Origin: an uncultured Bacilli bacterium
Lineage (GTDB): Bacteria; Bacillota_I; Bacilli_A; RF39; UBA660
DNA length: 64,000 bases
Direction of reading: 5' to 3'
Assembly (NCBI GenBank): GCA_944332005.1
Contig: CALVJD010000002.1
Location: 3,836-67,835, forward strand
Each line of letters starts with the position of its first letter. The stretch's first letter is position 1. Below are positions 14,885 through 38,231 of the stretch, piece by piece. Made by a program: the position numbers and the translations under genes. The notes below the pieces were generated by a model. That model saw only the letters and a list, made by a program, of their open reading frames with translations. It made no database searches and was not told where the DNA came from.

Positions 14885-15238
14885 ATGAATCATAAAAGCT
14901 ATTTGAAACATGAATATTTTATGACAGTGAAGAATGGAAAAAAGACAGTTGATGTTCGTCTTTGCGATGCTGCTTGCTCATCTTATCAAGTGGATGATAC
15001 GATCAAATTTATCGATATCGATACCGAAGAGTCCTTGATTGTACGTATTAAAAGCCTTTCATATTATTTTAATATCGATGATTTGGTAAATGATTATCCG
15101 GTTGATTTATTAGGATTTTCTGGTAAAAGTAAAGAAGAAGTGAAAGCAATCTATGATGCAATTTATTCGAAAGAAGAGCAAGAAACATATCATGTGATGG
15201 CAATTGGATTCGAGGTTTCTCATGTTGGTAAAAATTAA
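14885..15238 (+). CDS. ASCH (PUA-like) domain protein
   Basis: 117 aa with an ASCH-like pattern of basic and aromatic residues. Confidence 0.5.
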   Translation: MNHKSYLKHEYFMTVKNGKKTVDVRLCDAACSSYQVDDTIKFIDIDTEESLIVRIKSLSYYFNIDDLVNDYPVDLLGFSGKSKEEVKAIYDAIYSKEEQETYHVMAIGFEVSHVGKN

Positions 15239-26487: not shown

Positions 26488-26511
26488 TAAAAAAAGAGAT
26501 TTTGTATCTCT
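26488..26511 (-). terminator. rho-independent terminator of the minus-strand islet operon
   Basis: agagat-acaaa-atctct hairpin followed by T8 on the minus strand. Confidence 0.5.
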
Positions 26512-26634
26512 TGTATATCTAATGGAGCCACAGTCGAGCCTATCTCGAACTTTTTCTCAAAAGAATATTGATAAATATCAAATCTATTAATATTTTACTA
26601 AATTACAATAAAAATATCAATGCTATATATCTGA

Positions 26635-27756
26635 TTATTTAAAATTTTTGAGGTTTAAATATTTATGATAAGTTTTTGCAAAATTATACCTTATTGAATA
26701 AAAAAGCTGATAATGTGGATTAATAGTACTGTTAAAATCAGATTCTTTAATGGATTTATATATATCATTTTCAATTGTTTCGCTATTAACAAAGGTAAAT
26801 ATTTCTTCTAAATTTTTATCAATATAATAGAAACATAGTATAGTTTTTTCTGAATGTTTTACTCGTTCTTCATATCTTTCATTAAAATTAATATTAGTAG
26901 GTAATACATAGCTTTCCCAAACAACAAAAATGCCAATAATATGTTCTCTTTCTATTTGCGTAGATATGGTATTTATTTTTCTATAAAATGTGGCCTTTGA
27001 TTCAGCTAAAAAGGGATTTATTTTAAAAGTTTTATCTTTATAAAATATAAACATAGTAGGCATTATATGTTGTTTTTGTAATTTATAAATAAGAATATGA
27101 CATGAAATGAAATCTTTAAACATATCTTTTAAATTATTACTTTGGAAAAAGTTATTATTTATTGGAACTTTTTCTTCTTTTTTATTTATATTATTATCAT
27201 TAAATCCTAACATTTTTGCTCTAGATTTAGGCTCTAGTAAATTGGTGCTTGGTATATATTTATAATCTCTCTCTAAACATAATTCATATATGCATATTTC
27301 TTTAATTTTTTCAGAAATTTTTAATTCCATATTTTCACATTTAAGACAGTTAGTATTGGTGGATAATTTAAATTGTGTAAGAAAACTATTCATATCGGCA
27401 ACTCCATGTTTTATTAAATCAATAATATTTATTTCTTTACCATTTTCAGTAAATCTAATTATAATAGACAAATATATTTCTGGTGCTTTAAATGTTTTTA
27501 GTTTCTCTTTAATTTCGGTTTCTAATTGTTTTGCATTTTCCCAATTTTCATAAGTATAGTTATGTTTTATAATTTCATTACTATTTCCATAAAAATATAC
27601 ATTCACCATTATTTGCTTATTTAATTTAAAGGGATTTTGATGAATTACTTCAACTCTCTTATCGTTAAGCCATTTTAATTCATCACTGATTAAATATTGA
27701 TCTCTTAATTGCTTATATATTTTCTTATTTTTGGAAGAATCTAATGATTTTTGCAA
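26635..27756 (-). pseudogene. hypothetical protein, very AT-rich, no recognisable domain; apparently the 3' part of a gene split by a frameshift in an A7/T7 tract
   Basis: The 373-aa frame starts only at a TTG with no RBS. The upstream 45-aa ORF fuses in-frame if the T7 run at 27783-27789 gains one T or loses two. Confidence 0.5.
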
Positions 27757-27764
27757 AACAAATG

Positions 27765-27902
27765 TTATATTTCTAAATTCAGAAAAAAACTATCAATGGA
27801 AGAAACTACATCGCAAAATTCTTCTGCTTTTATAAAGTCAGATAAGTTTTTTAAAGCACTATAAAATTTTTGATATGACGTACACATTATACAATTACTC
27901 AT
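27765..27902 (-). CDS. 45-aa Cys-containing ORF, probably the N-terminal part of the frameshifted downstream gene
   Basis: Strong RBS ggaggtatat upstream of the ATG. It ends 8 nt before the TTG of the 373-aa frame. Confidence 0.4.
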   Translation of the reverse strand: MSNCIMCTSYQKFYSALKNLSDFIKAEEFCDVVSSIDSFFLNLEI

Positions 27903-27973
27903 ATATACCTCCTCATTGTTTTCTCAGTATTATAGCATAAAAAAACAAAATTTTCGGTTTTGTTTTTAGAATA

Positions 27974-29071
27974 TTATATATAATTTATTTTTTCAGCTTT
28001 TAAAATAGCATCAATATATTCTATTGTGTAATCACGAATAAATTTCTTTGGAGATAAAACCCAAGAATTTATTTCATTATACAATCTTTCGAATCCGATT
28101 TCTCCATATTGATTATAAAATTCAGAATAATTAATTAGGCCTTCTTTTAAATATTCTCTGTACGCTTCATTTCCCACATACATTCTTTTTGACAATTTAC
28201 TTCCTGACCAATCTAATATTGTTGGAGTATAAATGATACTTGGAACATCATGTATTTTCATTTTTAACAATGGTTCCATATAAACTCGTAAAGGCCACAT
28301 TCCAGACCAATCGCCACCATCAACAATAACATTTAACGAATTATCAATTTTATCTTGTTTTAATAAATATAAAATTTTTACTAAATAACGCAACGGTACA
28401 TTCATATCAAAATTGTCATTACTATTTTTGTCGATGTTTACTTCAAAATTGCCATGTTTTGGACAAAAAGAATTTATAATAATTTTATTGTCTACAGCTT
28501 TAATTTTTGTATTAGAAAGATGTTTTTCTGTTAAGCCACATTTAGGGCATGGGACTCTTAATCTAATTTCGCCATTTTTTGGATCTAAAGTGTATCTTAA
28601 TTCTTTTTCGTTCTGTATTACTTCATAAAGTGCTTCTTTTACTAATGGATTTTTTTGATAATCATAAAAAAATAATACCTCATAATTTATTTTGTCTTTT
28701 TTACTTAATTTGTCTAATAACTCTTTAAAATAGGGGAAAAATTTTTCTTTAATTGTTAATCCATTATTATCTTTAACAATATTTAAATTTTTGTAATACT
28801 TAATTCCATCTATCATAAATTCTTCGCCAGTAACACTTTCTAAAAGCTCAACTTTTATTTTTACTGGAACATTATAATATTTTTTGAAATGTTTAGCTAA
28901 TGCAAAGGCTGAAATAAAATTGGTTAGAGTACCGACATGTGGGTAACTATTAACCTGTGCTGAAAGCCATAAAACAATTTCCTTTTTTCCGTCCATTTTG
29001 TTTTTTATAATTTCTGCTAAATCATCTATTATATAATTCATTCCTGCTAATGGATAATATACATTTTTCAT
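27974..29071 (-). CDS. truncated class I aminoacyl-tRNA-synthetase-like protein (class I LysRS-like catalytic core, no anticodon-binding domain)
   Basis: HIGH-like NSYPHVGT, KMSKS-like GSKLSKR, and a Zn knuckle CPKC..27 aa..CPKH. It is 365 aa, against ~520 aa for class I LysRS. Strong RBS gaggagg. Confidence 0.55.
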   Translation of the reverse strand: MKNVYYPLAGMNYIIDDLAEIIKNKMDGKKEIVLWLSAQVNSYPHVGTLTNFISAFALAKHFKKYYNVPVKIKVELLESVTGEEFMIDGIKYYKNLNIVKDNNGLTIKEKFFPYFKELLDKLSKKDKINYEVLFFYDYQKNPLVKEALYEVIQNEKELRYTLDPKNGEIRLRVPCPKCGLTEKHLSNTKIKAVDNKIIINSFCPKHGNFEVNIDKNSNDNFDMNVPLRYLVKILYLLKQDKIDNSLNVIVDGGDWSGMWPLRVYMEPLLKMKIHDVPSIIYTPTILDWSGSKLSKRMYVGNEAYREYLKEGLINYSEFYNQYGEIGFERLYNEINSWVLSPKKFIRDYTIEYIDAILKAEKINYI

Positions 29072-29649
29072 TTTGACCTCCTCGTTATGTATCCCGCTTT
29101 AATTATATCATATTTCTTATTTTTGGTATATTCAACATCTTTTAACTTAAATTCTTCTGTCATTTCCATTTCCTTACAGGTCATACAAAAATTGTCTTCA
29201 TATAATTTTGAGTGAGAATTGATATATTCTTTATTATATAATTCTTGTTTTTCTAAATACTCATATACTGCTGGAAAATTTTGAATATTCAAATAACATT
29301 GTGGGACATTAAAATGACTATCAATTTCTTTTATTTTATTTATACTTATTGGTTGTTTAAATAATTGTAGAGATTCTATAGGAATAGCAAATTTTTCTCC
29401 ATTTTTAAGGCAATTTTTAATTCTATCATATATAATAGAATCTTTATTATAATCGTCTATTTTTTCAGCTGTATGTATTGGTTTTCCCAATTCCATTATG
29501 CCTACTACTTCTTGTACAGGGGCGCTTAAATAAAGATATGCTGTCGTTGGTTTATCACAAAATCTTTTTCTGTATTCATACATTTTCATGTTATATAATA
29601 TTGGCCTAAAAAATTCAGGTCTAAAACTCAAAAAAATTTTTCTTTTCAT
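29068..29649 (-). CDS. ASCH/PUA-like domain protein
   Basis: N-terminal KIFLSFRPEFFRPILYNMKMYEYRKR pattern is typical of ASCH domains. Its stop overlaps the downstream ATG by 4 nt (ATGA). RBS ggaggt. Confidence 0.5.
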   Translation of the reverse strand: MKRKIFLSFRPEFFRPILYNMKMYEYRKRFCDKPTTAYLYLSAPVQEVVGIMELGKPIHTAEKIDDYNKDSIIYDRIKNCLKNGEKFAIPIESLQLFKQPISINKIKEIDSHFNVPQCYLNIQNFPAVYEYLEKQELYNKEYINSHSKLYEDNFCMTCKEMEMTEEFKLKDVEYTKNKKYDIIKAGYITRRSK

Positions 29650-29696
29650 TTATTTTACCTCCAATCAACAAAAATGCAATTTAAGTTTCTGCTTAA

Positions 29697-29730
29697 ATTA
29701 TAACATATAAATACTAAATTATAAAATTAG
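29697..29730 (-). promoter_or_regulatory. candidate promoter of the islet operon (extended -10 TGtTATAAT on the minus strand)
   Basis: Extended -10 read on the minus strand with a weak -35. It lies about 45 nt upstream of the first gene. Confidence 0.35.
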
Positions 29731-29892
29731 CGTGTGATATATTTTAATGTTATTTAAAAGCAAAATGTTATTTATTTTTTAAACTTTTCTGCATTTCACA
29801 AATAACATCAATTTCTTTTTCAAAGTATCATTAATTGGGTTTTCTTTCTTAATAACATTTACCATTAATAAATCACTCTCACTTTCTTAAAC

Positions 29893-29925
29893 AAAAAAAT
29901 CAAATCCATTTCTGAATTTGATATT
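29893..29925 (-). terminator. rho-independent terminator downstream of tRNA-Gly(TCC)
   Basis: atcaaat-tcagaaatgg-atttgat followed by a T-run on the minus strand. Confidence 0.6.
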
Positions 29926-29961
29926 TATCATAATGCCCGAAAGTTCGAGCAGATTCATCTC

Positions 29962-30035
29962 TGGAGCGGATGATGAGAATCGAACTCACGTAGTCAGCTT
30001 GGAAGGCTGAGGTTCTACCATTAAACTACATCCGC
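29962..30035 (-). tRNA. tRNA-Gly(TCC)
   Basis: Acceptor gcggatg/catccgc, anticodon loop ctTCCaa, CCA encoded. Confidence 0.8.
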
Positions 30036-30362
30036 ATTTATAAAATAGGTTTTAACATATATGGAATTTCATATTGTCAAAGCCTTCCTAATCAGTAGGC
30101 ACTATTAATTTTACCAGAAAGGATGAAAAAGTCAATAACTTTGTGAAAAAAAATAAATTTTTTTACTCATTTTATATGATATACAGATTTTACTAATTTG
30201 ATACATGTTCAATTAAAAGAAGTTATGATATAATGATGATATAAGAAAAGTAGAGAAGTATTCATGTTGAAAGAATGTTGACATCTATTGATAAAACTTA
30301 TTTTTGCTTTTTTTATTTTGTATACTACGACATGAATGCAAACAATCAATTAGGAGTAAGTT

Positions 30363-32093
30363 ATGAAGAAGAAAGAATCAACAAAAATGAAAGTAAAGAC
30401 ACCTTGGTTACAATTTTATAGTGAAGTAGAGGAAAAATTAGAGGTTCCTAATTATTCTCTTTATGAACATTTGCGTAGAACCGCTCTTAAATATCCGGAA
30501 TATATTGCTTATGATTATTTTGGAGTAAAACGTCAATTTAAAGATTTGATGATGGAAATTGAAACATGTGCGAGAGCATTTAAATCTTATGGTATTGGGG
30601 TAGGTGATGTCGTAACATTATGTATGCCAAATACACCAGAAGCGGTTATCGCTTTTTACGCCTTAAATCGCATTGGTGCAATTTCCAATATGATTCATCC
30701 CAAATCAGCGGAAAATGAGATTAAATATTATTTAAATGTATCGGAAAGTACAATGTTAATTACGATCAATATTTCTTGGGATAATATCAAAAATATCTTG
30801 AAGGATACCAAGGTGAGGCAAACCGTAGTTGTATCACCAAAAGATAGTATGCCAACATTACTTGGAATTGGATATTTACTGACACAAGGACGTAAGTCAA
30901 AAATTCCTCGTAGTAGTGATCATTTATGTAATTGGCGTGAGTTTCTTTATCATGGAAAATATTATGATCAAGAACTGGATGCAAATTTAGATGGAGATGC
31001 TTACGCTTCTATTTTATATAGTGGTGGTACGACGGGAAGCCCAAAAGGAATTGTTCTTACAAACCGTAATTTTAATGCGGAAGCAATTGCCAGCTTTACA
31101 GCGGTTGCAACCTTGCATGCTGGTGATACGGCGTTAGCCATTTTGCCAATCTTTCATTGTTTTGGTTTGGGTATCTGCATTCATACGGTGTTATCTTTTG
31201 GTGGAACATCCATTTTGCTTCCTCAGTTCAATGCGAAAACATTTGATAAATTACTTGCCAAACATCGCCCTAATGTTATTTTAGGAGTTCCTACTTTATT
31301 TGAAGCGTTACTCACAAATGATAATATTGCTAAGATGGATTTATCTTTTTTGAAATGTATTATCTCAGGTGGGGATTCGCTGTCTATTAGTACAAAGAAA
31401 AAAATTGATGCCTTCTTGCGTGAACATGGCGCAAATATCCAAGTGCGAGAAGGATATGGACTTACTGAAAGTACTTCTGCTGTGTGTCTTACGCCTCCTT
31501 CTATTTATCGTGAGGGAAGTATCGGGATTCCTTATCCAGGAAGTTATATGAAAATCGTAAAGCCAAATACGCACGAAGAACTTCCTTATGGTGAAATTGG
31601 TGAAATAGTCGTTAGTGGTCCAACCGTGATGTTAGGATATTTAAATGATGTTAATGAAACAAATCACGCTTTGCAAGAACATGAAGATGGCCTTGTTTGG
31701 TTACATACGGGTGATTTAGGAATGATGGATGAAGATGGATTTGTCTACTTTAAGCAACGATTAAAACGTATGATTGTATCTTCTGGGTATAATTTATACC
31801 CACAATATATTGAAAATGTCATCGATAGTCATCCTGCGGTATTAACTTCCACTGTGATTGGAATTGAACATCCTTATAAGATTCAGGTGGCTAAAGCATT
31901 TATTGTCCTTAAGAAAGGTTTTGAACCATCTGAAGAATTGAAAGCGGATATTTACGAGCATTGTAAAAAGAATTTGGCTAAATATTCACTTCCTTATGAG
32001 ATGGAATTTCGCGAATCATTACCGAAAACACTGGTAGGGAAAGTGGCTTATATGCAATTAATGGAAGAAGAAAAGGAAAAGAGAGAAGTATAG
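30363..32093 (+). CDS. long-chain fatty acid--CoA ligase (AMP-binding adenylate-forming enzyme)
   Basis: YSGGTTGSPKG P-loop, the GYGLTE motif and a C-terminal AMP-binding domain. Confidence 0.85.
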   Translation: MKKKESTKMKVKTPWLQFYSEVEEKLEVPNYSLYEHLRRTALKYPEYIAYDYFGVKRQFKDLMMEIETCARAFKSYGIGVGDVVTLCMPNTPEAVIAFYALNRIGAISNMIHPKSAENEIKYYLNVSESTMLITINISWDNIKNILKDTKVRQTVVVSPKDSMPTLLGIGYLLTQGRKSKIPRSSDHLCNWREFLYHGKYYDQELDANLDGDAYASILYSGGTTGSPKGIVLTNRNFNAEAIASFTAVATLHAGDTALAILPIFHCFGLGICIHTVLSFGGTSILLPQFNAKTFDKLLAKHRPNVILGVPTLFEALLTNDNIAKMDLSFLKCIISGGDSLSISTKKKIDAFLREHGANIQVREGYGLTESTSAVCLTPPSIYREGSIGIPYPGSYMKIVKPNTHEELPYGEIGEIVVSGPTVMLGYLNDVNETNHALQEHEDGLVWLHTGDLGMMDEDGFVYFKQRLKRMIVSSGYNLYPQYIENVIDSHPAVLTSTVIGIEHPYKIQVAKAFIVLKKGFEPSEELKADIYEHCKKNLAKYSLPYEMEFRESLPKTLVGKVAYMQLMEEEKEKREV

Positions 32094-32132
32094 CTCTTCT
32101 TTTTGTTGTATAATAGAAATAAGGTGATGACG

Positions 32133-33242
32133 ATGGGATGGTTATTGACAGCTTTAGCAGTAGTAATAGCAAATTGGTATTTATGGTATCGTTACCGAAG
32201 ACATGCTTCTAAATTAGAAATTCGCATGATTGAATTTTTTCAAGTATGTCTTTTGATACCGACAGGGCTCTACTTTATTTTATACTTTAGTCGCAATATC
32301 GATTCTGTTTGGGTTCAAGTGTTATCTTATGTGGCAGGACTTTATGTAGCTACTTTGGTTTACTCTTGTATTCTTTTTCTTTTTTTTGATGTTTTAGATT
32401 TTATTTGGAAACATCTTTTTAAAAAGGAACAAGGTGCTTTTTCAGTTTCATGGTTTCATCGCAACTTTTTTCTTTTTTGCCTTGCTTTTGTCATTGCTTT
32501 TTATGGTCTTTGGAATGGGACTCTTTTGGAAATTACTTCTTATCATATTACGATGGAAAAAAGAGAATCGAATCTGTCTTCTCTAAAGATTGCTTTTTTA
32601 TCGGATTTACATATTGGAGGTTTCATAAGAGATGAAGAAATTTTAAAGATTGTTGATCGTACGAATGAATGGAATCCAGAATTAATTGTTTTAACGGGAG
32701 ATTTATTCGATGAAAGTACTTCTGAAAGACAGAAAACATTATGGATTCAAGGAATGAAAGAGTGGAATCCTAAATATGGTATTTATTATGTGTATGGTAA
32801 TCATGAATACTTGTCTTCTACTTTTGAAGAAGATTTAAAACTTTTGGAAAATGCTGGTATTCATGTTTTAGAGGACGAAGTAGTCAATGTTGAACATGCT
32901 TTTACGATTGTCGGAAGAAAAGATCGTCTAGCAAAGAGAAGAGCATTATCGGATCTTTTAATGGAGACCGAAGATTTGCCAATTTTACTACTTGATCATA
33001 GACCTTATTATGAAGATGTTTCTGATTACGACCGTGAAATATTACAACTTTCGGGGCATACTCATAATGGTCAAATTTTTCCTTTTAAACCTTTTTATGA
33101 TCTCGTTCATTTACATGCTTATGGTTATTATCAGAAACCTTCTTACGATTTACTAGTAACTTCTGGAGTTGGAATGTGGGGAATTCCCGTTCGAATTGGA
33201 AGTAGTAGGGAAATTGTACAAGTGTTGATCAATTTTAATTAA
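32133..33242 (+). CDS. membrane-anchored metallophosphoesterase
   Basis: Four N-terminal TM helices. Calcineurin-like motifs DLHIG, GDLFD, GNHE and GHTH. Confidence 0.8.
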   Translation: MGWLLTALAVVIANWYLWYRYRRHASKLEIRMIEFFQVCLLIPTGLYFILYFSRNIDSVWVQVLSYVAGLYVATLVYSCILFLFFDVLDFIWKHLFKKEQGAFSVSWFHRNFFLFCLAFVIAFYGLWNGTLLEITSYHITMEKRESNLSSLKIAFLSDLHIGGFIRDEEILKIVDRTNEWNPELIVLTGDLFDESTSERQKTLWIQGMKEWNPKYGIYYVYGNHEYLSSTFEEDLKLLENAGIHVLEDEVVNVEHAFTIVGRKDRLAKRRALSDLLMETEDLPILLLDHRPYYEDVSDYDREILQLSGHTHNGQIFPFKPFYDLVHLHAYGYYQKPSYDLLVTSGVGMWGIPVRIGSSREIVQVLINFN

Positions 33243-36024: not shown

Positions 36025-36360
36025 ATGAAACATTGGAAAAAAGGAATGGTTGTAATAAGTGTTGCTTTGTTATGCATATTTGCTGTCGGATGTGGTGAAG
36101 GGAAACAAGCATCTTACGAAAAAACGATGGAAGAATATGCTAGAGATTATTATGAAACCTATATTTTGGACAAGGTAGAAGGATTGGATGTTCCAGAAAT
36201 TACCATTGCTAATTTAGAAAATGTAAATGCTAATGGTGGAGCGAATTATGATCTTAGCAAACTAGAAGGTTGTACATCGACTTCCTATGCTCGCTTAATC
36301 TTGAAAGAAAATGGTAGAGATATCGACCATGTAGAATTTAATATGAGTTGTGAAAAATAG
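36025..36360 (+). CDS. small lipoprotein, hypothetical
   Basis: Lipobox AVGC and a TATAAT promoter upstream. Confidence 0.55.
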   Translation: MKHWKKGMVVISVALLCIFAVGCGEGKQASYEKTMEEYARDYYETYILDKVEGLDVPEITIANLENVNANGGANYDLSKLEGCTSTSYARLILKENGRDIDHVEFNMSCEK

Positions 36361-36752
36361 ATAAAAGAATTAATTGAATAAATTTCTATGTCAAATAAAA
36401 AGGTAATTATGACAACATCGATCATTGATCGGTGTTTTTTTCACTTGTTTTTGATTTTAATATATAGCATATCCATTCGTTCCATCCAATTTGTAATTTA
36501 TTCAGAGTTTTGAAACAAATCCTCTTTTGATGAAATTTCGATACTATTCGATTTCGTTTCCCTTATATTTTATATTTATTTTTTTAAATGGTAATAATTT
36601 ATAAATCACTTGAATGTACTTTTAAAAATTTTCAAGAATTCCTTTTTTTATTTTTTTAATTTGATGGAAAAGAATTCAAAAAACGTTTCATTATTTGCCA
36701 TTTGCTTACCTTTCTTTCTTTTGCTATAGTGGCTACAGAAAGGAGGTAGAAC

Positions 36753-37094
36753 ATGTTGAATCAATTGGTAATCGTTGGAAGAATGGTCCGGGAACCAGAA
36801 CTTTATGAGACGGATACCGGTAGGAAAGTAACGTCGATTGTATTAGCTGTTCCTAGAAGTTATAAAAATTCTAATGGTGAATATGATACGGATTTTGTCA
36901 AATGTATTTTGTGGCAAGGAATTGCTGAAAATACAACTCAATATGTCAAAAAAGGTGATTTGTTGGGCGTGAAGGGCCGTATTCAATCCAAGGAACGTGA
37001 GTTAATGGATGGAACAAAATGGACCTATTTAGAAGTTGTCGCAGAAAAAGTTACATTTTTATCATCAAAACCGAAAGAAAAGCGAGAAAAATAG
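36753..37094 (+). CDS. ssb: single-stranded DNA-binding protein, short form lacking the acidic C-terminal tip
   Basis: OB-fold SSB pattern. The protein ends KPKEKREK with no DDDIPF tail. Confidence 0.8.
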   Translation: MLNQLVIVGRMVREPELYETDTGRKVTSIVLAVPRSYKNSNGEYDTDFVKCILWQGIAENTTQYVKKGDLLGVKGRIQSKERELMDGTKWTYLEVVAEKVTFLSSKPKEKREK

Positions 37095-37184
37095 TAGAAA
37101 AAACGTTAACTAATGATTAATTATGTTTCAAATAGCTAATTACCTGTTATAATATAATTAACACAGAGATAACGAGGTGATAGG

Positions 37185-37523
37185 ATGATTGGAACGAAAA
37201 TTAAGGAAGAACGTTTAAAAAGAGATTGGACCCAAGAGGAATTAGGCGACAAAATTGGTGTCAGTAAGGTATGTATTTCCGGATATGAAAAAGGAACAAA
37301 ATCCCCAACTTTAAATACGATTTATCGCTTATTAAAAGCGCTTGAATTAACACCCAACGAATTACTTGGCTATGAGGTAGAAACGGTTATAGACAAGGAG
37401 GTTATTCATCTATCACATAGCGATGTTCATATTCTTTGTTCCTTAAAAGAATATCCAGAACTTTATCAGAAAATCAGTGAGGATCCGAAACGAATCTTGG
37501 AGCGAATGCAGAAAAAAATATAA
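37185..37523 (+). CDS. XRE-family HTH transcriptional regulator
   Basis: HTH_3 domain. It is a paralogue of the gene at 37875. Confidence 0.8.
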   Translation: MIGTKIKEERLKRDWTQEELGDKIGVSKVCISGYEKGTKSPTLNTIYRLLKALELTPNELLGYEVETVIDKEVIHLSHSDVHILCSLKEYPELYQKISEDPKRILERMQKKI

Positions 37524-37532
37524 AACCAAGAA

Positions 37533-37736
37533 TTATTTCTTGGTTTTATATTCCTCATAAAATAGGTGGTCAGGCGTAACTCCAAAAATGGTTGCCATCT
37601 TTACAGCCATATCATAAGAAAGGCGCCTTTTGTTATTTTCTAACTGCCAGTAATAAGTTTTACTGATCGATAGTAATTCGGCCATTTGTCTATGACTGTA
37701 ATGAAACTTTAAACGATATTCTTTTAATCGTTCCAT
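37533..37736 (-). CDS. XRE-family HTH protein (Cro/cI-like)
   Basis: 67 aa HTH_3. It is divergent from 37875 and convergent with 37185. Confidence 0.75.
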   Translation of the reverse strand: MERLKEYRLKFHYSHRQMAELLSISKTYYWQLENNKRRLSYDMAVKMATIFGVTPDHLFYEEYKTKK

Positions 37737-37776
37737 CTTATCACCATCCTAGTTCTATTATATATTAACTTCTAAT

Positions 37777-37789
37777 TAACTTCAAGTTA
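37777..37789. promoter_or_regulatory. candidate operator palindrome (taACTTcaAGTTa) within TTAACT repeats in the divergent intergenic region
   Basis: Inverted repeat and repeated TTAACT half-sites lie between divergent HTH genes. Confidence 0.35.
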
Positions 37790-37874
37790 AAATTAACTAA
37801 AAATTAATTTTCTTTCAAAATATGTAAAGAATGCTTATAATAGTATTAACAAATGGATAACGGAGGAACTGGAT

Positions 37875-38231
37875 ATGTTAATTGGAAAGAGAATAAAAGA
37901 AGCAAGACTTGCTAAGGGTATGAGTCAACAAGCTTTAGGAGATTTGTTGAATGTTTCAAAAGTATCAGTTTGCGGGTATGAAACGGGAACGAGAACCCCT
38001 ACATTAGAAACATTCTTAGATTTAATCGAAGTACTAGATTTAGAACCATCTTATGTGCTAGGAATTGAAACTTCTGTTGTAAATGAAGAAGGAGTACCTT
38101 ATGGTGCGAAAATAGCCAAAGAAGATTTTGAAATTTTAAACGAATTGAAAAATCATCGCAGTTTGTATAACCAATTGTGTGAAAATCCAAAACGTACGGT
38201 CGATATCATCGCGAAAAAGATGGAAAAATAA
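37875..38231 (+). CDS. XRE-family HTH transcriptional regulator
   Basis: HTH_3 domain and the RBS acggagga. Confidence 0.8.
   Translation: MLIGKRIKEARLAKGMSQQALGDLLNVSKVSVCGYETGTRTPTLETFLDLIEVLDLEPSYVLGIETSVVNEEGVPYGAKIAKEDFEILNELKNHRSLYNQLCENPKRTVDIIAKKMEK

Follow-up and report, generated by a model that had tools for sequence, protein, structure and literature searches.

The window, by which we mean the whole stretch of 64,000 nt (33% GC) that was analysed, carries on its minus strand a short islet with three co-oriented genes, designated here A, B and C (Table 1). The element that holds these genes begins directly after the 3' end of a tRNA-Gly gene, which therefore serves as its integration site; the tRNA in question is tRNA-Gly(tcc) in the window and tRNA-Gly(gcc) in another carrier of the element, the metagenome locus L007. 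The window is homologous to carriers with an intact gene C (described below as T8 carriers) over 29821..26521, with 29985..29798 in addition for L001 and L007, and not outside these limits. Between the spacer and gene A, the other carriers possess a further segment that encodes the mobility functions, and the corresponding junction in the window lies at a short AGAAATT microhomology: given that this segment is missing, the window copy is a deletion derivative, now immobile, of an integrative mobilisable element. This copy is about 2% diverged from copies that share 99.5% identity or more among different host species, and a megablast search of the islet against plasmids gave no match. In its overall organisation the islet resembles decaying integrative mobilisable elements at tRNA genes, as it abuts the 3' end of tRNA-Gly, ends in a pseudo-tRNA 3' end, has lost recombinase and relaxase in the window and contains a broken cargo gene; it differs from the known elements of this type in its cargo, since ASCH-like, class-I aminoacyl-tRNA-synthetase-like and Ea47-like proteins have no established function.

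Table 1. Features of the islet and of the frameshifted gene C (coordinates are those of the window).
Feature	Coordinates	Strand	Description
tRNA-Gly(tcc)	29962..30035	-	element starts right after its 3' end
Junction of missing segment	29798..29821	-	other carriers have about 5.5 kb here, with a serine recombinase and a Mob_Pre relaxase
Gene A (193 aa)	29068..29649	-	ASCH-like, intact in the window; PADLOC PDC-M11B, E = 1.3e-13; PDB 5GUQ/5Y6C ASCH protein, E about 5e-4; source name 'ASCH domain-containing protein'
Gene B (365 aa)	27974..29071	-	class-I aminoacyl-tRNA-synthetase-like, intact in the window; phrog_35625 'tRNA synthetase', E = 3.5e-24; weak GluRS matches; pN/pS 0.05
Gene B-C spacer	27903..27973	-	RBS GAGGAGG at 27914..27908; extended -10-like TATGCTATAAT at 27939..27929
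Gene C, whole	26635..27902	-	allele with a frameshift; intact protein 421/422 aa, function unknown; predicted N-terminal four-helix bundle with the family's most conserved motif
N-terminal fragment ORF (45 aa)	27765..27902	-	residues 1-40 authentic gene C; last 5 (LNLEI) out of frame before TAA
T7 homopolymer	27783..27789	-	1-nt deletion relative to T8 of intact copies; codons S38-F39-F40-S41, AGT TTT TTT TCT
Gene C, downstream open frame	26635..27789	-	384 codons from the T run; mechanical 373-aa ORF from TTG 27756, which is Leu50 of the intact protein
In-frame 3-nt indel	27198..27200	-	window lineage has one Asp codon more than T8 copies
Right end, pseudo-tRNA 3' end	26521..26549	-	GTTCGAG...GGCTCCATT; homology among all carriers ends here

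With regard to the cargo, gene A is the only one of the three with a match to the PADLOC candidate system PDC-M11, whilst genes B and C retrieved nothing from PADLOC-DB; our literature search found no paper describing either the PDC-M11 system or the function of Ea47. Gene C gave nothing significant against Pfam, NCBIfam, PHROGs and PADLOC and nothing in a sequence profile search of the PDB, its structural model found no match at E <= 0.001 with Foldseek against the PDB and BFVD, and tblastn with the intact protein found no match in phages (50,697 records) or plasmids. Some members of the gene C family carry a precomputed match, marked 'weak', to PF26900 (Phage_lambda_Ea47), and when the family alignment was compared with lambda Ea47 by hhalign, only the N-terminal motif was aligned (E = 0.002, probability 13%; BLASTP E = 0.6). 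Relatives of gene C with 30-50% identity stand alone, in capsule loci (L018, L026), between dus fragments (L013) or in recombinase/integrase islands (L016, L028). The preliminary description of this DNA had called gene C the last gene of the islet operon: it does have the same orientation as genes A and B and moves together with them, but a 72-nt gap that contains an extended -10-like sequence separates it from gene B, and its 44-50% identical relatives occur without the other two genes. The same TGnTATAAT arrangement is also present upstream of the stand-alone homologue in L016; a consensus promoter scan did not call the site in the window, as it has no -35 element. Judging from this arrangement, gene C probably has its own promoter, and is probably a passenger with separate transcription and not, strictly speaking, the last cistron of an operon.

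Gene C itself is split over two reading frames. An ATG at 27902 on the minus strand, placed 5 nt behind its RBS, opens an ORF of 45 codons that ends at a TAA (27767..27765); the second ORF begins 8 nt past this stop at a TTG (27756) and runs to 26635, giving 373 aa, with no purine-rich RBS to be seen in the sequence ahead of the TTG. Upstream, this second frame is bounded by a TAG (27792..27790) that lies directly 5' of a run of seven T (A7 on the plus strand), and thus the two frames can only be joined within the 25 nt from 27789 to 27765, which start with this T7 run. Addition of one T restores a protein of 422 aa, and removal of two T restores one of 421 aa. Every coordinate that the preliminary description had given was confirmed upon re-reading the sequence and the ORF listing, as was its repair by gain of one T or loss of two. 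A tract of this kind is by itself unremarkable in the window, where A/T runs of length 7 and 8 number 66 and 18 respectively. The frame junction at the T7 run is not a matter of chance: at this composition, the probability of an open frame of 384 codons is approximately 1.5e-18.

Intact homologues reveal the state from which this allele arose. Using the repaired gene C protein as query, we obtained 90 homologues that are single ORFs of approximately 410-430 aa, with the exception of a few shorter fragments. The nearest homologue (P0001, 95% identical) reads SSIDSFFSEFRN across the junction, exactly as expected from the repair by one T, and its DNA (L001, L002) agrees with that of the window around the site save for the run, which is T8; the P0001 cluster comprises intact 421-aa members on about 196 contigs. 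A pattern scan in which the tract length was left free returned T8 from one further metagenome locus (L007) and from three species-representative MAGs (L008-L010). The carriers found in the genome collection were T8 only, in MAGs named Candidatus Coprosoma intestinipullorum, an uncultured Clostridia bacterium and an uncultured Bacilli bacterium. In L001, L002 and L007-L010, the T8 run is embedded in DNA that otherwise shares approximately 98% identity with the window. Over the 3.3 kb of the module, just two indels separate the window from these six loci: the missing T, which alone shifts the frame, and an in-frame codon (27200..27198). As read from these alleles, ancestral gene C is one uninterrupted ORF with a T8 run. 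Orthologues organised as two ORFs with conserved, independent starts had been named as the finding that would speak against a frameshift; instead, the orthologues are single ORFs, and the TTG at 27756 is an ordinary Leu50 codon that reads TTA in L012.

A missing base in a homopolymer raises the question of whether the T7 run is real, and the preliminary description had listed a sequencing error amongst its explanations. Under such a reading, the organism would truly carry T8 and the T7 of the window would be a homopolymer miscall. There is reason to consider this, as homopolymer indels are the classic error of several sequencing platforms and two of the contigs that support T7 have low coverage (L003 and L004, about 2.5-3x according to their names). 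The exact 45-aa product is, however, also present in four other assemblies, represented by the metagenome contigs L003 (BRZ_AK), L004 (BRZ_GE) and L005 and L006 (two ONAT22-1 samples), which stem from two projects and were assembled separately. All four have T7 and share 99.8-100% identity with the window. L003 and L004, the longest two, continue into the flanking chromosome, where the AMP-binding gene and tRNA-Gly lie, L003 spanning 32514..26496. Although the source of the window may share its sample with one of the four contigs (L003 or L004 could be that one), at least three stay independent. The same collections, moreover, consistently assemble other lineages as T8, and a systematic scan of the window identified the T7 site as the sole homopolymer frame junction involving a long ORF, which indicates that the assembly is not generally error-prone. 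Using the AMP-binding neighbour gene as bait for an empty site or for a T8 allele in the same context recovered only L003. Since T7 is found in four other assemblies of the same lineage, a one-off homopolymer miscall is ruled out, and an error of sequencing or assembly is an extremely unlikely source of the split that we have rejected: by comparison of these contigs, the T7 deletion is real and is inherited in one lineage.

The position of the lesion within the protein is informative as to its effect. Alignment of the family places its most conserved part at the N-terminus, with invariant residues K12, Y14, D37, F39, E42 and R44 and near-invariant S41 and N45-K52; the tract encodes codons 38-41, with F39-F40 at its centre, and hence lies inside the most conserved block of the family, which the deletion disrupts. 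In the predicted structure of the protein, which is a confident model (pLDDT 87.9, pTM 0.83), the site is located in the middle of a helix (residues 29-53) of a four-helix bundle. One could propose that the split is functional, with the peptide of 45 aa and the product of 373 aa working as distinct subunits, for which the excellent RBS of the first ORF and the fully open downstream frame might be quoted. Against this, the segment E42-V49 between the tract and the TTG, whose residues are invariant or near-invariant, is translated in neither ORF, the TTG start has no RBS and is not conserved, the break cuts a predicted helix through its middle and no orthologue is divided in this manner except via the same 1-nt deletion. 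Function in two pieces is very unlikely because of the untranslated segment, the unconserved start and the break within a helix; the two-subunit gene was therefore ruled out as a candidate, its probability being practically negligible. From the alignment and the model, the T7 allele is best read as a loss of function.

A different route to a functional protein would be recoding, also raised in the preliminary description as a programmed frameshift: the T7 allele would yield full-length protein through a -1 shift of the ribosome at U_UUU_UUU or through insertion of an additional U by RNA polymerase, with the split being a functional design. The sequence at the junction is suggestive in several regards, as AGU UUU UUU C in the 0 frame forms a perfect X_XXY_YYZ heptamer in phase, a -1 slip at this point yields exactly the ancestral SFFSEFR and a 0-frame stop follows within 5 codons. 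In its in-phase heptamer and its short 0-frame tail, the site is similar to those of programmed -1 frameshifting in dnaX and in orfAB of IS3/IS911; unlike these, it has neither a pseudoknot nor a hairpin nor a Shine-Dalgarno-like element, and the orthologues of gene C are one ORF. The RNA downstream of the tract is not folded more stably than shuffled sequences (z = +0.89; 167 of 200 shuffles were at least as stable), no GGAGG-like motif is present upstream of the tract, and unstimulated heptamers in E. coli raise frameshifting no further than about 2-10 times a background of about 0.055% (PMC4066793). Neither is the two-ORF layout conserved, with orthologues including those at 98% identity being in frame, nor is the tract, which is absent or shorter in the 44-50% identical relatives (AAA TTT TTT TCT in L013, an in-frame T7; ACT TTC TTT TCA in L016; TTT CTT TCA in L018). 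In the case of transcriptional slippage, productive events are documented at runs of 8-9 nt or more (PMC1088944), whilst the run of gene C has 7 nt and it is the 8-nt version that is in frame. Homopolymer frameshift pseudogenes or 'savior indel' genes are known from AT-rich bacteria, an example being the poly-A frameshifts treated by Baranov et al. 2005 (PMC1088944) and Atkins et al. 2016 (PMC5009743), and gene C resembles them in having a single-base indel in an A/T run, orthologues that are in frame and a run at which slippage could in principle restore a little product; it departs from the 'savior indel' cases in that its run is only 7 nt after the deletion and thus below the documented range. 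A trace rescue from the T7 allele is possible; a designed frameshift is not supported in view of the single-ORF orthologues, the lack of a stimulator and the unconserved tract, and we regard programmed recoding as very improbable.

Inactivated copies of the module are not restricted to the lineage of the window. T7 is found on two further backgrounds: in L011, which is 99.8% identical to the T8 locus L007 (3 of 2061 positions differ), and in L012, which represents a third lineage. With T7 present on three backgrounds, the change from T8 to T7 has probably occurred at least three times, with the proviso that L011 and L012 are single contigs and could be assembly errors. Gene C is also interrupted by nonsense codons at W78, namely TGA in L022-L024 (three samples) and TAG in L025, on backgrounds that are identical or nearly identical to intact copies. 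We considered whether TGA might encode Trp (genetic code 4) in these alleles, which is unlikely as the TAG allele affects the same codon and the element genes contain no other in-frame TGA. Gene B is affected elsewhere as well, with A6 to A7 frameshift alleles (P0116 and P0113, which end in DPKKWRN and a stop) at the tract that in the window is A6 (CCA AAA AAT near 28585). The simplest reading of these lesions is scattered mutational inactivation of an accessory module, of which the T8 run would be the most mutable target.

The recurrence of T7 would also fit phase variation, another of the explanations put forward in the preliminary description, according to which the T tract would be a contingency locus where slipped-strand mispairing toggles gene C between OFF (T7) and ON (T8), perhaps modulating a costly or toxic accessory function, with the window having been caught in the OFF state. 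Phase-variable homopolymer loci are found, for example, in restriction-modification and surface-structure genes of Campylobacter, Haemophilus, Neisseria and Helicobacter. As in such contingency loci, a 5'-proximal coding homopolymer sets the frame of gene C (codons 38-41; T8 is in frame and T7 stops at codon 45, a clean OFF), the OFF state recurs on several backgrounds, all T7 alleles are otherwise intact and the gene is accessory, riding on a mobile and possibly defence-related module. In contrast to them, the tract is short and was seen in just one alternative length, it is not conserved in the family (as the relatives L013, L016 and L018 demonstrate), and its length follows the lineage: all five sequences of the window lineage (the window and L003-L006) are T7, whilst all other sampled copies are T8 with the exception of L011 and L012. 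A T8-restored protein of the window lineage and the products expected from T6 and T9 are absent from a collection of 15 billion proteins. A run of eight is furthermore short for an evolved poly-A/T switch, and its existence is explained by the Ser-Phe-Phe-Ser codons in a 33% GC genome with 84 A/T runs of 7-8 nt per 64 kb. Finally, the nonsense alleles of gene C, which are not reversible, and the involvement of a different homopolymer in gene B speak for general mutational loss. Searching viral contigs for the tract-length pattern gave no match. Thus, the recurrence of T7 on three backgrounds holds in favour of phase variation, but the dependence of tract length on lineage, the missing T6, T9 and restored products and the co-occurring nonsense alleles count against it, and we consider a phase-variable switch unlikely.

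Gene C has been inactivated independently and by several routes in metagenomes, which hints at a cost to fitness; an active gene C may be selected against. A stronger version of this idea would hold that the T8 tract is an effective ON/OFF hotspot of a costly cargo gene, carried by a mobilisable element that targets tRNA-Gly and spreads widely, and that hosts repeatedly silence this gene (T8 to T7 at least three times, the W78 stop by two routes), that the T7 state is revertible or slightly leaky via slippage on U7 and that gene C encodes a conditionally deleterious effector, for example of a toxic or abortive-infection type, the silencing of which would be under selection; this we put forward as a speculative proposal that is unlikely.

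In our view it is quite probable that gene C of the window carries a fixed loss-of-function allele, that is to say, a young pseudogene that arose through ordinary mutation. Recent pseudogenisation, the remaining explanation in the preliminary description, finds support in the existence of intact T8 orthologues and in the inheritance of T7 within one lineage. Replication slippage in the coding homopolymer would have converted T8 into T7 by deletion of 1 nt; translation from the strong RBS would then end after 45 residues, leaving the 384 codons downstream without a usable start, and with the conserved segment split and in part untranslated the protein would lose its function. At most, a trace of full-length protein may still be formed through unprogrammed slippage of RNA polymerase or the ribosome on U7. 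The lost recombinase and relaxase of the element and the lesions in other copies would fit ordinary decay of an accessory mobile module, or counter-selection against it. As far as age is concerned, gene C contains no secondary stops and no out-of-frame indels beyond the missing T; for about 15 substitutions, however, the probability of no new stop is 0.4-0.8, and the lack of secondary stops therefore has low statistical power and says nothing about age. Comparison of the window with T8 copies gave pN/pS values of 0.43-0.52 for gene C, 0.05 for gene B and 0.12-0.27 for gene A. When the amino-acid changes in gene C were polarised with ten outgroup proteins, 8 were derived in the window and 6 in the T8 clade: given this symmetry, gene C evolves faster in both lineages, and there is no sign of relaxed selection that is specific to the lineage of the window.

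For annotation, these findings mean that 26635..27902 should be treated as one frameshifted gene (a pseudogene) and not as two genes, and that the frameshift is real and is not to be corrected. To this extent the locus is a routine case of homopolymer slippage that inactivates cargo on a decaying mobile element. The cargo is less routine: the three genes, with their ASCH-like and class-I aminoacyl-tRNA-synthetase-like proteins and the Ea47-like N-terminal motif, are uncharacterised, yet the module is spreading at no less than 99.5% identity amongst MAGs that represent three species.

The islet carrying cargo genes A, B and C is an integrated element: it starts directly 3' of a tRNA-Gly(tcc) gene in the window, and its other end is formed by the 3' end of a pseudo-tRNA (GTTCGAG...GGCTCCATT). 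Related copies (L001, L007, L010, L022 and L023), of which that in L007 is located at a tRNA-Gly(gcc), contain ~5.5 kb of additional DNA with genes for a serine recombinase, a Mob_Pre relaxase or both; this segment is missing from the window copy, where the junction is an AGAAATT microhomology.

Genes A and B are an unusual cargo pairing. The gene A product is ASCH-like, matches PADLOC PDC-M11B and resembles PDB 5GUQ. The gene B product, 365 aa long, is class-I aminoacyl-tRNA-synthetase-like: it matches a phrog annotated 'tRNA synthetase' and has HVGT and KLSKR motifs, both spotted by eye, and one Cys-rich insert resembling a zinc ribbon. Identity of the three-gene module is at least 99.5% among MAGs representing three different species.

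Frameshift alleles of gene B were found in other samples as protein records only: two products (P0116, P0113) terminate in ...DPKKWRN*, and the databases also list remnants of the downstream part, 143 aa in length (P0110, P0117). Read from these products, the allele is consistent with an A6 to A7 change at the CCA AAA AAT tract. In case of gene C, the nearly invariant W78 is replaced by a stop codon at four loci (L022–L025), all with an intact T8 tract: TGG is changed to TGA in three samples and to TAG in the fourth. Stop aside, the backgrounds of these copies match intact copies fully or almost fully, and the W78-stop copies are independent loss-of-function alleles.

Coordinates of the features discussed
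Feature	Location	Detail
Integrated islet with tRNA-Gly(tcc)	window 26521-30035
Pseudo-tRNA 3' end	window 26549..26521
Microhomology junction	window ~29798-29821
Genes A + B	window 27974-29649
Gene B A6 tract	window ~28578-28590	codons 163-168
Gene C, W78 stop	L022:5001-5234
Gene C, W78 stop	L023:5001-5234
Gene C, W78 stop	L024:2795-3028
Gene C, W78 stop	L025:1181-1414
Lambda ea47	L021:2190-3419
Solitary gene C homologue and Dus surroundings	L013:5300-8299
Second ASCH-domain gene	window 14885-15238
Small-gene cluster	window 36025-38231

Lambda Ea47 aligns weakly with gene C residues 35-124, the N-terminal family motif (LDxFFSEFRNITFVLQKS ... W..KRN in the gene C family versus NLNQFLQTARTVTFIIQKN ... 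W..NSRN in Ea47), and the lengths are comparable (421 aa for gene C, 410 aa for Ea47); the hhalign comparison of family and Ea47 returned E = 0.002 with a probability of 13%. A solitary homologue with 49% identity (L013) has a Dus fragment of 101 aa on one side and a Dus gene of 329 aa on the other, as though the homologue had inserted at or beside the tRNA-dihydrouridine synthase gene. Further homologues are housed in capsule/EPS loci (L018, L026).

Elsewhere in the window, a second, unrelated gene with an ASCH domain (Pfam ASCH, E = 2e-7) has its last 35 nt in common with the beginning of a gene for a PAP2 phosphatase; a frameshift reading of this overlap was rejected, the two being distinct genes. 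A cluster of small genes that encodes, among others, an SSB and two Cro/C1-type (HTH_3) regulators could be what is left of a prophage or some other mobile element.
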